From Eremomyces bilateralis CBS 781.70 (Eukaryota), in NCBI GenBank assembly GCA_010015585.1, contig ML975150.1: 64,000 bases of DNA; one strand, written 5' to 3'. Position numbers and translations under genes: made by a program. The notes below the pieces were generated by a model. It saw only the letters and a program-made list of their open reading frames with translations, had not been told where the DNA came from and searched no databases. Positions 11,901 to 18,433 of this stretch are shown piece after piece. The stretch's first letter is position 1. Each line of letters begins with the position of its first letter.

Positions 11901-13082
11901 GTCGCCACGGGCTCCACAGACCGGAAGTGGACGATCTCTCATGCCTCATAATGGTGGAGAGTTTCTACCGTTCCCTGGTAATATGTGTAGATTTGACTCT
12001 CAGTAGCATCTTCGAGGTTTTGAAACCCCCGATGCAATGCAATTGGATGTTGCTCCGGAGTCCGCTGCACAACGCCACTGAAACAAAGATGACGAACTGT
12101 TCCGAGACGTTCAAGTTCCGATTGATGGACCCAGAAGGACTCATCCTGCACGCAGTCATGCTCGATGTGGTATATATGCTTGAGTCACAAGACTGGTAGA
12201 AAAGAAGACCTTGGCGTGTAGACCAATCCAACCCTCTAAAAGAGGACGCGAAAGGGCAGTGACTCAACGACGAAGAAGATACGCGGTATTCTGCCAAATA
12301 CCAACATGTTATCAGGGACTCGGTACCGCATTAGCCACTTTATTATGAGGCTTCAAGCTGAGATAGTGTTAAACATCCTGATGCCATGATGCCGAAACGG
12401 AGATAGTTCGAGGAACCGAGGACAATTATCTGTACACGTGGACCAATTGCTGAGTGTTGACGAGTTATACCATGAACAGGAGTACTGTTGTTGCGTATCA
12501 AAGGAGCAAAAGTTGCTCCAAGTCAAAGACCCGACGTTTTAATTCCCATTTCGTGGGTTGCACATCATGGCAAGGAAGAGGGAGATCCCAGGAAGATCCG
12601 GCGACCTGGCGATCTGCACAGAAATTAGTCGCTTCGGCCAGCCTAAACACTCTAGCAGTCGAGCTTCATTCGTTGCATAAAGCCACTCCAAGTCACCGCA
12701 CATCTTCATAATCGATCGAAGACGAACCCAACTTATCATATTTCGAATATCCTATCTCTACCTTCAACTGCAAGTGCCTCTATCAACTCATCCTTTCCTC
12801 CGTCAAAATTGTTTGTCAATTGCACCCTGCCGGTCGGTTCACTACGTGATCCTTACACGACGACTTCACAGGAGGTCGTTACTTGTACGGTCGTACCACC
12901 AGCGAACGATGTTCATTCAGTCATCGATTAACATTTAACAGGATTTTTTAACCATCTCATTCGCTTCCTGGTAGTACTCTATCCTGTACAGCATCCATGA
13001 CGCCCTAACGTCCCGTTTGCCGGTCTTTTACTTGCACTGAGCGGCGTCTATCGAGTGCTCTCGACTCTTTGAAGCCGCTCGG

Positions 13083-16000
13083 ATGACAAGACCAAAGGTA
13101 CCGCCAGATCAGCGGCAGAGGATTGCGCAAGCCTGTCAAAGGTTGGTTGGTTTCTCTCATATGTTTAAACCTTCTCGCGACCTCAAGGCGACGGTGACGG
13201 GGCTGATGCGGATAGCTGAAAAGTTGCAAGAGACGTAAACAGCGGGTGAGTTCATTCAGGCGAGAGTTCATCAAACTTCATTTTCACAGCTCCATCCGAT
13301 ATCCGATGAAATCGGATCCCTTTACAATGTGCCGTTGTTCGGCAATGTCCTTGCCTGTCTTTTTCTCCCAAGTTCAATCAAGTCTTCAATGTCCCATTCT
13401 GCGCTTCCGTGGGGACCAAATTCCATGGACAACGGCACTTGAAGCTCGCCAGCATGGTGGCATTTCAGGTATGAGCTTTATCGAATCCTCGTACCTTTCC
13501 AGGGTTGTGGCATGATAATAATAGTACAACATATTTTGTGCAACTCCCCTGGATCGGGGCAGCGTTTGGAGCGCACTCATGACTCAGGAATTCACCCACC
13601 GAGCCCATGTCCATTCAGATGCAGATAAACCCTTCACGGTCAAGTCGCACAGGACATCGCCTGGAATTGCCTGGAGTAATGAACTCGCTCGCCCTTGGAC
13701 AGGATCTCGGTTCGAACAAAATATAAATGTGTAGCGTTCCTTTTGTGGCATCAAGACTGTCCGCCCTTATGCTTATGTCCGGTCCTAGGCATTGGCCAAC
13801 GAGAATCGTGTTGCTTCACCATGTTCTTTTGTGTGCCACCAGCCTGCTTGTTTGAGCATTTGCTAAATTTTTATTTAGTGCAACGGTCAATGCCCATGCA
13901 ACACCTGTGAGAAGCGACAATTCGATTGCATTTATGATGATCGGGAAAGTGGGTCAACCCCTGAGGGTGGCCCGAAAGCAAAGAAACAAGCGACTGGAAG
14001 AGATCTAAATTTTCCGCTGGCGGCCCAACCGGCAACAGTCCATGCAAGATATGTTGCGAAGGAGCCAAACCAAATCAACGGATTTGACTCGAAAACACAT
14101 CTGTCTCTGTCGGGCGATCAACCGTCGCCTTACCCGCCTAGCACATTCAATCACCAGCGCATCCCGAGTTCGACTAATGGGTCCGGGAGATCAACTTCTA
14201 AGGACTTAATTCCAAGGGAGCCGACTCAGTCACTGCCTGGGAATCTCTCTACGCCTGATGATGGAGGCAATGGTGCTCCAACTATGTCCCGTACGACGTC
14301 CCAGAGTGGACCAGAGGAAGAAGTGCACGCTTTCTCAGAAGCTCGGATGCTGCAGGATCCCACTGGAAGATTACGTATGTTCACTCCTTGAGGAATGAAG
14401 AGGTTCAATATATTTGCTTGCTGACATGAACCCGGTACAGTCTATCTGGGGGATGCGGCGACTTTGGCGAACCTCCAGTTAATTCGCATGATGATCGAAA
14501 GCGTCGCTGGTCCTTCTCCGTTCACTGCCGATGCCAGCAGGCATAAAATCATGGAATCTCAGATCTCGATTCCAAACATGCGACACCCTCAGTTGCTACC
14601 TGATAAAAAGACCGCGGTTGTCCTGGTCGACAGCTTCTTCATCAATGTAAGTCTACCATATGGGTTTTAGGCTAATATTCTGACCTGCCGTAGACCCATG
14701 GTCTAGTACATATCTTCGAACGACAAGACTTTCTCAGCCGCATGGATGCATGCTATTCGGATCCATTATCTGCTGACGCCCCCTGGCTCTGCTTACTCAA
14801 CCTAGTGTTTGCAATTGGCCTTATACTGGCCACGCCAGCGCCAGGTTCAATAGAAGAAGACGTGATTGTAAAGCTTCGGAAAAATCCCGAGGAACTGTCC
14901 GATAAATTCTACCTCAGCGCGAAAATCTTGAACGATCCAGTGGTTGGCATCGAGGACTCCGACTTCTGGTCCATCCAGGCTCTTCTTCTCATGACATTAT
15001 ATATGCTAGCTAGGTCAAAACGGAACACCGCATTTGCCCTACTCGGTATGTTCGCCTTGTTAAGTTGCTCTAGGCGTTGCTCATAATTGGATAGGTATGG
15101 CAGTGCGGTCTGCATATGCTCTTGGTTTGCATCGACAAGAGACAACGCAGATCTTTCCTTCCGAAACGCAATCGGCCAGACAGAATATCTGGAGGTCCCT
15201 GTTCGTCCTTGATCGATTCCTATCCTCCTCTCTCGGCCGTCCCACAGCAATCTCCGAGGATGAATGCAGTGGGAAGGCACTCAACCCAAATTTCAAGTTT
15301 CAACCAACTCCGGTATCGTTCGACCCCATTTTGCCAGGGCCAGCGGTATTTTATCAGACCAGCATTCAAGGCCTTGATTCGGTAGTGCGGAGTTGCTCAG
15401 TGATCGGCATGACCCTCCGGCGTGTGTATCAACCACGCAAGATCTCGACCAAATTGGCGCAAGAAATTGCAGATATATACAAGCAGTGGCCCAAGAATCT
15501 CGTCGAAGAGCTACACTGGCGCCATGCTCGCTCGGCATCAGCAAGTCAAGGAATCGCCATTCTCCATGTCAACCTCTTCTTCTGCCACTCGATCATTTTG
15601 CTGTCGCACCCTTTTTTCCTTTACCTCATGAATATGATCATTACGAAGCGCTACAATCCGACAGAAGCATCGAACCGTTCAAAACGGATGTACACCCGCA
15701 TGACTCTGTTCAGCAATTCTTGTGTCGCCGCATCTTCTCAAACCATTAACATCCTTCAAAACGCATATGTAGCTGGGTATCTCCCAAGACGAAACCCTTG
15801 CTTCATCTACTTCCTTTTCAGCGCCACGATAATCATCCTCTGCAACGAGTTTGTCTATCTATACCAGCATTCCGACGCTACCCGCGACATCGAGAACGCA
15901 TCTCGCCTAATGGACTACTGCGCGGAGACGGATCCACATGCATCGACACTGACGTATATCGTCTCCTCTTTCCGCGACGTCGTGGAAAAGGAAAAGGCTA

Positions 16001-16503
16001 AACGCCCACAACCATCTGACGGTCCTTCGCCGGAGCCGACTTCCACAGGTGCATACCCTAATCCAAATCCAGTCGCTCAGGCACCCATGGATTCAAAAAC
16101 TAGCGCTCCGAAGCAGGGATACTACCTTCCTCACCCCCCAAGTGCCAATTTACTCTCATCAACGGCCCATTCGACCCCGTCAGCAACCGCCACCACAGCC
16201 ACGCCCGGCATCCCCACCCTGCAGCCCTTACCCCCCTCTCAAGTACCTCAAATCCATCCCGGCTACAAGGCCAAGCCGTCCTACCCCCAACCCCCACGCC
16301 AACCCTTCTTCAACCTCGACTCCCTCCACAACTCTGGCTTCTCATTTCTCCATGACCAGCACCGAAGCGACGGAGCCGACGAAGTCGAACGCGAAGGTAG
16401 CTCTGGGAATGAAGACCAGATCGATTTCAACACACTGTGGCGGTCGTGGCCGCATTCACAGCAGCAGCAGAGCTTTGGGGGTGGGGGTCCGCGGCCAGCA
16501 TAA
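13083..16503 (+). CDS. Zn(II)2Cys6 fungal transcription factor with Fungal_trans domain
   Basis: Exons 13083-13141, 13224-13245, 13879-14374, 14441-14646, 14694-15045, 15095-16503. They rebuild MTRPKVPPDQRQRIAQA-CQSCKRRKQRCNGQCPCNTCEKRQFDC (C-x2-C-x6-C-x5-C-x2-C-x6-C), followed by RMLQDPTGRLLYLGD and GMAVRSAYALGLH...WRSLFVLDRFLSSSLGRP. Confidence 0.9.
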
Positions 16504-18433
16504 TAGGGTGGGGAGAAGGGCGGAGAGGTGTTCACGGAGGTGGAAGTGCCGGAAAGTAGTTCGGCGGTTCCGTTATATGGAGTTAGCATGGGGTATAGGT
16601 GAATAGTTGGAGGTAGTCATAGAGCACAGATTGAGGTTGATATGTTCCGGATCGACTGATGGCCTTGACTATTGAAAGTGCGACATTAAGGGCCTCAAAT
16701 GAGAGCCATCGAGACGGGAAACACGCATAACTCCGTTTCCATCTCATTCTCTGCTCTGCCTTAACCAACGTCGATATAATATTCCACGGGTAGCAGCTAA
16801 ACAGACCTCGAACCAGTGTTTAAGGAGAAATATGGGAGAACCGTGCATTACCATGGGCTTGTTCGTTTAACTTGGCCTCAACCCCTACCAGTCATGTATA
16901 TTTAGCAAAGCTTGCACTCCTGCGCTTCTGCGGCCGACCCGTTTCCCTGGGCAAGGTTATGGATTCATAGAAGAACAGGAGCCTGTCTCTCATGAACACC
17001 TCTTGCCTTCTGTTCTTATCTTTTCGACCACTTGATATCTTAAAACTTCCAATCCCCAACCAAAATCAGGTTGACTAGATCATGGTGAGCTAAACTGATC
17101 TCCGTATGACCGAACAGAGTCGAGACCGATTCGCCAAACGCAGTGTCGAGAGGAAGATGGTTCCCAGGGGGGCAAATTACGACCATCCGCCCAATCACTC
17201 TCATACCCCAAATGCCCTCATCCATCACCCCAATGATCCTCCACTGTTCACACTGGTCCCCACGGCGGCGGCAGAAATAATCCGTTCAGCATTGCCTGCA
17301 GGAGCAAGAACTGCTGATAATCACCCTTCGGGTCCTCGTCATTGATCCGTCTCATTGCTTTAGTCGCCAGGACCATTTCATCAACTTGTATACAGAGGGA
17401 GATCATGGTGCGGTCGACGTGGCAGGAGCAAACGCAATGTGGCAGCTACGATTAGGGTTGAGTTGTTGGAGAGGACTAGGTAGTAGATGCAAGGTAGAGG
17501 TGGCGAGAGATTTGGTCGACGAGGTCGATGTCTAGGGGGTTTAGGGTAGCCATCGAAGTGGAGTCGAACGGAGTGAACGACAAAGGATCTAGAAGAAGGT
17601 GTGATATTCTTGAGTCCGGGATTGGGAATAATATGGTCGTGGGCACGAGAAGAGGAAGATGTAGATAGCCATGGTGGAGAGAGATGGACAACGTTGACAA
17701 TGACTGTTCGTCACTGAGGTCACTGAACGCTCTACAATCCACGTCAAAGAAATGTTTGTATGCTTGAAGATGCGGCAACCTATTCAGTCCTATTCAGTCC
17801 TCGCTCGTCTCTTCGAGCTCTAAGGACAATTCTATATGGCGGTTTAGAATCGAATATAGGCATTACTTGGATAGGAGTCGCTGCCAGGAGATGGACCTAC
17901 TCGTTTCTACCTACCCTGATAACTAGGTACCAACACGACGCCCAGAGTTCACGGTTCATGCCAAGTAGGTGATCAACTCTAGATCAAGAGAGTTAATTAG
18001 TGTAGAATCTCGCTCGGATCAAGCGATTCCACTCTTCTTATCGTCGCATCATCAGATTCCCCCATAGGTTCCCCCATAGGTCCAGCCCTATTTTGGCAAG
18101 GAGATTTGCGGCGGTGATCTCTGGGCTCTTGGAAATATCAAATCTTCACAAAATACCTAGGGGGATGAGGTCCTCCGTCGGCCACCCCGTACCGCCGCGA
18201 TGGTTGGCATCGACACAGAATAGGAAGAAAAGACGAGCAATCTCGTAGATACATAGTTGGGACGAAAGTACTACGTACATATCATTATGACGGCGAAAGC
18301 CCCCGAAGGGGGGACTATGCCTTCTATAGCTAATGATATTATGATCCCTACTAATCACTTGGCGGAGGAATTGTTGGCAACATACGACTGAACGACTGAG
18401 CGACTGAGCGGCTAGGGAAACCACGGGTAAAGA

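Follow-up and report, generated by a model that had tools for sequence, protein, structure and literature searches.

What are the consequences of a long intron that splits the DNA-binding domain of a fungal regulator? The question is raised by a gene of Eremomyces bilateralis CBS 781.70 (GenBank assembly GCA_010015585.1, contig ML975150.1), which lies on the plus strand at positions 13083-16503 of the 64,000-nucleotide stretch analysed here (the window, meaning the whole of that stretch). The gene encodes a Zn2Cys6 transcription factor of 847 aa in six coding exons (spliced gene model), and its second coding intron (intron 2) separates the second cysteine of the zinc cluster from the third (Cys2 and Cys3). 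A first reading of the letters alone (the original prediction) had placed in this intron two cassette exons that would keep the reading frame. Intron 2 is a genuine, unusually long intron of a conserved Dothideomycete transcription factor gene, and an alternative 5' splice site inside it is shown here to yield an abundant frameshifted transcript, which makes up roughly half of the transcripts of the gene.

Two 5' splice sites for one 3' splice site

The RNA data are the contigs of a single public run (X1) made under one condition, and the depths given for joints are contig-wide k-mer means. This run represents spliced RNA: GT..AG joints are present at all five coding introns (82, 633, 66, 47 and 49 nt, in order), 13245/13879 included (a slash marks a joint or an exon boundary). 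The original prediction thus gave the right coordinates for intron 2 (13246-13878) and rightly called the other introns far shorter. The bin depths over introns 3-5 exactly fit zero intron cover, with no retention there; DNA contamination is therefore not the source of the intron cover described below.

Beside the canonical joint 13245/13879 (depth 14.3), the contigs hold the joint 13468/13879, which skips 410 nt with GT..AG ends at depth 15.9. Two donors (13246 and 13469) are thus joined to one acceptor in RNA of the same organism, which is alternative use of a 5' splice site. Both joints are observed directly and at similar depth, and so is the unbroken extension of exon 2, one contig (record 3) being continuous over 13220-13468 at a depth of 29.4, compared with 38 for the downstream exons. 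Intron 1 is also partly retained (contig record 2, continuous over 13112-13245, depth 10.9 vs 39.7 at the spliced joint), and its retention leads to a stop at 13236-13238. Judged from these rough contig depths, transcripts coding for the intact factor make up at most about 40% of this sample. We favour with moderate confidence an explanation in which a long spliceosomal intron splits the cluster and has two competing 5' splice sites for one 3' site, the isoform made from the site at 13469 being unproductive and possibly regulatory.

The joint 13468/13879 could also be an intermediate, if intron 2 were removed in two nested or recursive-like steps, the 410 nt at 13469-13878 first and the other 223 nt (GTGAGT..TTTCAG) afterwards. 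At 13466-13474 (CAG/GTATGA), a motif resembling a 3' site abuts the 5' site, the remainder after the first cut would start with GTGAGT and end with CAG beside exon 3, and a YAG/GTRNG motif of this kind occurs in just 2 of the 30 distinct introns compared below. Stepwise excision of complex fungal introns is moreover documented for stwintrons, in the portions of that literature available to us. However, an intermediate would not usually match the final product in depth, as this joint does in contigs of steady-state RNA, and the reciprocal joint 13245/13469 is not among the joints in the contigs. The 45 nt upstream of 13468 contain no CTRAY branch motif, a weak argument because the strict pattern misses three of the six real introns tested (a 5'-UTR intron, intron 2 and intron 5). 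Intron 2 resembles stwintrons and recursively spliced introns in being a long fungal intervening sequence with an internal 5' site beside a 3'-site-like CAG. It differs in that no outer splice signal is interrupted by an inner intron, as the definition of a stwintron requires: the remainder is already GTGAGT..CAG and nothing is reconstituted. A further difference is that, of the intermediate joints that could occur, the contigs show a single one. Two-step removal therefore appears improbable.

Another contig links 13468 to 13533, skipping 64 nt with GT..AT ends and without microhomology at a depth of about 9, and continues unspliced over 13533-13906 into exon 3. This joint may stem from a genuine but unusual splicing event, from a jump during reverse transcription or from the assembly.

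The closest precedent suggests yet another origin for products that lack the cluster. In T. reesei ace3, an intron of >400 bp separates a two-cysteine exon from a four-cysteine exon directly before Cys3, and the authors map an intronic start site for a second transcript with an incomplete cluster and argue against alternative splicing (PMC7412840, in the parts of that paper available to us). By analogy with this mapped start, a second promoter or transcription start within intron 2 would give rise to a factor lacking an intact cluster. The unspliced contig just described does cover the 3' part of the intron, and the public model of the gene starts at Met184, without the cluster. However, that contig is joined upstream to 13439-13468 and is hence not an independent start, and the starts of transcripts are not visible in contigs. 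For the public model, mis-annotation is the simpler explanation, as 100 of 122 ortholog models lack the cluster and such models have been reported as annotation errors (PMC10141177, in the text accessible to us). An internal start is thus quite improbable.

The favoured explanation, with two competing 5' splice sites, keeps several likenesses to ace3 as far as the available text describes it: a Zn2Cys6 activator, a long intron right before Cys3 (here KRRKQR/C, with the ace3 variants parting immediately ahead of Cys3; compared by eye), alternative transcripts without an intact cluster and public models that disagree at the N-terminus. The difference is that the second transcript arises from an intronic start in ace3 and from an alternative 5' splice site here. 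Compared by eye only, the cluster and domain sequences of ACE3 and of the window factor look unrelated beyond the family motif, and the two genes do not look orthologous. The accessible part of a paper on DsAce3 contains nothing on introns.

The product of the alternative transcript

The effect on the reading frame can be read directly from the contigs. The extension of 223 nt shifts the frame, and a TGA at 13908-13910 ends a product of 111 aa that contains two of the six cysteines. Three exon joints lie downstream of this stop, which is further upstream of the next one than the >50 nt of the rule for nonsense-mediated decay (NMD). By translation, full retention of intron 2 would give 116 aa and the form that skips 64 nt 117 aa.

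It could be asked whether the 111-aa product, with a basic N-terminus holding Cys1 and Cys2 and an 84-residue tail, is a functional small protein. Its read-through frame stays open for 89 codons, a length attained in only 1.5% of 5000 mononucleotide shuffles. Among orthologous introns, however, at least 40 open codons are found in frame 2 for 10 of 18 groups, compared with 7 of 18 for frame 0; since frame 2 is at least as open, this openness is compositional rather than coding. A search of the extension against 1.84 billion representative proteins gave a single match (E = 7e-5), to a tandem-repeat protein with about 30% identity in seven stretches, which we read as spurious, and Pfam gave no match in the two cassette-frame open reading frames scanned. 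The extension was rejected as coding sequence owing to this compositional openness and lone spurious match, and a functional small protein is very improbable. Four consecutive in-frame stops (TGA TAA TAA TAG, 13513-13524) close the read-through frame of exon 2, 45 nt past the alternative donor.

The proposed cassette exons

The two segments of the original prediction, 13290-13328 (39 nt) and 13373-13468 (96 nt), are present as described: they are stop-free, have lengths divisible by three, are bounded by AG and GT and each follow a 44-nt GT..AG interval. Inclusion of one or both was expected to give a full-length inactive or dominant-negative factor with a disrupted Cys2-Cys3 loop. Of the joints that this requires, 13468/13879 is present in the contigs and the donor behind the second segment is truly used, whereas 13245/13290 and 13328/13373 are absent. 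Neither these two nor 13245/13373 are among the seven joints of the run, although contigs can lose rare forms, and no segment is joined in RNA at both its upstream and its downstream end. With both upstream joints missing and one contig continuous over 13220-13468, the two 44-nt intervals remain in the RNA.

The cassette-like segments are no more than expected by chance. Intron 2 contains 20 frame-preserving, stop-free AG..GT segments of 27-150 nt, vs 22.7±8.4 in 500 dinucleotide shuffles (314 of the 500 reach 20), and eight of these have a pyrimidine-rich tract upstream, vs 4.5±3.5 in shuffles (87 of 500 reach eight). The donor of the first segment, GTGCCG, has no G at +5. At 44 nt, the two intervals fall below the length of every confirmed intron of the gene, and neither has a CTRAY motif; this strict pattern, as noted above, misses real introns as well.

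The original prediction had also suggested that similar peptides occur in automated models of related factors. The cassette peptides were compared with stored ortholog models (120 by blastx, 122 for cysteine spacing) and with the 35 orthologous loci described below. None of the 122 models has an insertion between Cys2 and Cys3, blastx of intron 2 against the 120 models gave nothing better than E = 3, and tblastn of the peptides against the 35 loci gave nothing below E = 0.17, so that this suggestion finds no backing. Inclusion of the cassettes is hence barely credible and largely refuted, although contigs can drop rare variants and a minor cassette isoform is conceivable. What stands of the original prediction is that alternative splicing takes place at this long intron and determines whether an intact cluster is made; the in-frame cassettes and the full-length protein with a remodelled loop give way to a frameshifted product.

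Conservation of the intron among orthologs

The stored ortholog models comprise 21 with the full motif, all spaced C-x6-C between Cys2 and Cys3, one with Cys3-Cys6 only and 100 without cluster. When metagenome contigs were scanned for the N-terminal motif, 35 loci were identified, of which 34 hold both flanking exons (the other, L015, ends within the intron). The intron lies exactly at the CKRRKQK/CNGLCPC boundary in 33 of these 34, and thus in all 33 that can be measured. The exception, L001, is the spliced cDNA form of the organism of L010 and L011 (99.7-100% identity). The intron measures 52 nt in L010 and L011, which have the same sequence, and 160-478 nt in the other 31 loci; at 633 nt, that of the window exceeds all others in the set of 30 distinct introns to which it belongs. 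By comparison, the next downstream intron measures about 46-56 nt in 19 of the same loci (gap minus 6 coding nt). Position and length of the intron are hence conserved by direct observation.

The donor is also unusual. GC-AG introns have weak donors and are often alternatively spliced. Among the 30 distinct introns, 13 start with GC (GCAAGT or GCGAGT) and several more have poor GT donors; for comparison, GT-AG introns make up 98.7% of fungal introns (PMC7072748, in the part of the text available to us). Comparison of L001 with L011 (6073-6124) shows directly that a GC-AG intron is spliced between Cys2 and Cys3, a 52-nt interval GCGCGT..CAG being removed. The window intron differs in that its donor is the consensus GTGAGT, and any weakness would stem from a predicted helix and the competing donor.

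No 6-, 7- or 8-mer common to the orthologous introns exceeds the shuffle maxima, except for splice and branch signals. Pairwise similarity is confined to six close groups in which the whole loci can be aligned, and is for this reason uninformative on constraint. The cassette peptides, the extension and the window intron found only non-significant matches in the 35 loci (best E 0.17-0.94 for peptides and 0.39 for DNA). As no sequence is shared beyond splice signals, what is conserved is the position, the length and the weak donor of the intron, not its sequence. In Verruconis gallopava, PV09_02690 is annotated with two forms, one of 898 aa that includes the cluster and a 'variant' of 834 aa that starts at Met65; as annotated, they are consistent with alternative processing of this region in a species of a different order.

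'MHD-only' fungal factors are reported as mis-annotated in the CeGAL study (PMC10141177, in the text accessible to us). The 664-aa public model of the window gene and the 100 ortholog models without cluster resemble these factors, although upstream exons exist. The difference is that a likely cause can be named here, namely the interruption of the cluster by a long intron that often has a GC donor. A '50 nt long intron' mentioned in the available part of a paper on Botrytis Bcin04g03490 is irrelevant to this intron. A literature search found no description of the Cys2-Cys3 intron of this orthogroup, for which the conserved long weak-donor intron in the cluster is a new observation.

Many orthologs carry an extra short intron (about 46-56 nt) just past the CNTC[DE]K codons, which the window gene lacks; conversely, none of the 35 loci has an intron between Cys1 and Cys2 like the 82-nt intron of the window gene.

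A predicted helix over the canonical donor

A repeat scan of 12900-14200 revealed no direct repeats and one inverted pair, which led to a predicted helix of 15 bp, including two G-U pairs, between 13242-13256 and 13678-13692. In silico, this helix spans the canonical donor. A z-score of -3.43 (20 shuffles) was calculated for the fold of 13236-13888, and the ensemble pairing probability of 13242-13254 is 0.96-0.97. The duplex energy is -24.4 kcal/mol vs -16.3±1.9 in shuffles, only one of 1500 dinucleotide shuffles reaching that value, and the donors of the other introns against the same body give -10.4 to -16.7. Such a helix, if it forms, could favour the downstream donor.

A model of intron 2 splicing and its weighing

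The splicing of this intron can be pictured as follows. When the site at 13246 is used, the conserved 847-aa factor is made. When the site at 13469 is used, 223 nt are kept, the frame shifts and translation ends at 13908-13910, giving 111 aa with two of the six cysteines. This alternative isoform would be unproductive and is probably a substrate of NMD. The choice of splice site, or the efficiency of splicing at intron 2, would then set the level of factor able to bind DNA, and in E. bilateralis the predicted helix over the canonical donor may bias this choice.

Unproductive alternative splicing coupled to NMD (AS-NMD or RUST) is an established phenomenon. The window gene resembles it by the alternative 5' splice site, the frameshift, the premature stop far upstream of further joints and the fact that a regulator gene is concerned. 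It differs in being known from isoform structure, with decay, regulation and feedback remaining conjectural.

Several observations weigh against this model. The RNA evidence comes from one run under one condition, as contigs; isoform shares are rough because the depths are contig-wide k-mer means. The 13468/13879 isoform is abundant at steady state. No orthologous intron is detectably similar to that of the window, and any conservation of the alternative donor or of the helix would be conjectural. As for the helix, the alternative donor, too, is largely base-paired in the thermodynamic ensemble, with a mean unpaired probability of 0.10, and the partner arm is transcribed 420 nt after the donor, so that co-transcriptional binding of U1 could pre-empt it. 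Masking of the donor by a helix is moreover not shared among the orthologs: p<=0.05 is reached in 3 of 29 introns, including that of the window, and the median p is 0.57. Finally, the alternative transcript could simply be noise, due to abundant mis-splicing of an atypically long intron. Regulation through intron 2 splicing is nevertheless plausible. A broader and rather unlikely proposal is that the long intron with a weak or GC donor between Cys2 and Cys3 acts as a conserved post-transcriptional gate across the Dothideomycete orthogroup, the efficiency of its splicing or the donor used determining whether a factor able to bind DNA is produced. In E. bilateralis, this gate would operate through a helix of 15 bp or more that conceals the canonical donor and diverts splicing to the downstream one, with a dead-end mRNA as the outcome.

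Structure of the gene and its public model

Exon 2 ends with ..CAG CGG/GTGAGT at 13245/13246, and the boundary with exon 3 reads TTTATTTAG/TGCAAC at 13878/13879. In the spliced translation, the cysteines are spaced C18-x2-C21-x6-C28-x5-C34-x2-C37-x6-C44, as in the Gal4-type motif. Exon 3 alone matches the C-terminal two thirds of Zn_clus with 15.2 bits, below the 21-bit cut-off, and PF00172 is present in complete orthologs. Fungal_trans, the middle homology domain (PF04082), is matched by exons 5 and 6 with 34.7 and 31.7 bits (cut-off 23). By blastx, 18-19 residues encoded by exon 1 align at or near the start (mostly residues 1-19) of 20 complete-cluster models among the matches listed.

The last exon is 100% identical to the public E. 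bilateralis CBS 781.70 model P0001 (664 aa). This model, which begins at Met184, has no part of the zinc cluster and would be lengthened to 847 aa by exons 1-3. Rather than an internal start, the absence of the cluster from P0001 more simply reflects an annotation error of a type frequent in the family.

Upstream of the coding sequence, a probable 5'-UTR intron of 57 nt (12885-12941, GT..AG) is indicated by a contig that starts at 12942 and has 173 extra letters, the end of which agrees with the window as far as 12884; on this basis, the 5' UTR would measure at least about 310 nt. No Rfam family was matched in 12000-17500 at E<=1, and hence no known intron-borne RNA. Coordinates of the features are collected in Table 1.

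Table 1. Features of the Zn2Cys6 gene in the window, and ortholog loci with an additional intron
Feature	Position	Strand	Description
Coding exon 1	13083..13141	+	ATG; MTRPKVPPDQRQRIAQACQ + 2 nt; Cys1; joint 13141/13224 in RNA contigs
Intron 1	13142..13223	+	82 nt, GT..AG; also a retained form
Coding exon 2	13224..13245	+	22 nt, ..SCKRRKQR; Cys2 and six-residue spacer; model, contigs, blastx
Helix 5' arm	13242..13264	+	Predicted; pairs extend to 13264 with 13666
Intron 2	13246..13878	+	633 nt, GTGAGT..TTTAG, phase 0, directly before Cys3
Exon 2 extension	13246..13468	+	223 nt (1 mod 3), kept upon alternative donor use; contig record 3
Proposed cassette 1	13290..13328	+	Unsupported as exon: neither end joined, poor donor, chance level
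Proposed cassette 2	13373..13468	+	Only 3' end in use (donor at 13469)
Alternative 5' splice site	13469..13474	+	CAG/GTATGA; joint 13468/13879
Helix 3' arm	13666..13692	+	Predicted
Branch-site-like TGCTAAAT	13861..13868	+	Putative, read from sequence; 11 nt upstream of 3' splice site
Coding exon 3	13879..14374	+	CNGQCPCNTCEKRQFDC..; Cys3-Cys6; model, Pfam, contigs
Premature TGA	13908..13910	+	Alternative-donor isoform; 466 nt before next exon joint (14374/14441)
Intron 3	14375..14440	+	66 nt; fully spliced in contigs, bin depth equal to zero-cover expectation
Coding exon 4	14441..14646	+	Model and contigs
Intron 4	14647..14693	+	47 nt; contigs
Coding exon 5	14694..15045	+	Fungal_trans; model, Pfam, contigs
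Intron 5	15046..15094	+	49 nt; contigs
Coding exon 6	15095..16503	+	To TAA stop; model, Pfam, 100% identity to P0001
Loci with extra short intron			L003, L005, L006, L008, L010-L013, L018, L023, L027-L031, L033

Implications

Zn2Cys6 factors form the largest family of fungal regulators, and very many of their public models lack the DNA-binding domain. For the orthogroup described here, a concrete cause of its absence from models is that a long intron, in many cases starting with GC, interrupts the cluster; this also provides a simple rule for repairing their annotation. Since most transcripts in the single RNA data set cannot encode a DNA-binding protein, the intron may also be used biologically. 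If the choice of splice site responds to conditions, it would constitute a compact, conserved switch acting before translation, an idea that can be addressed in any tractable species of Pleosporales.

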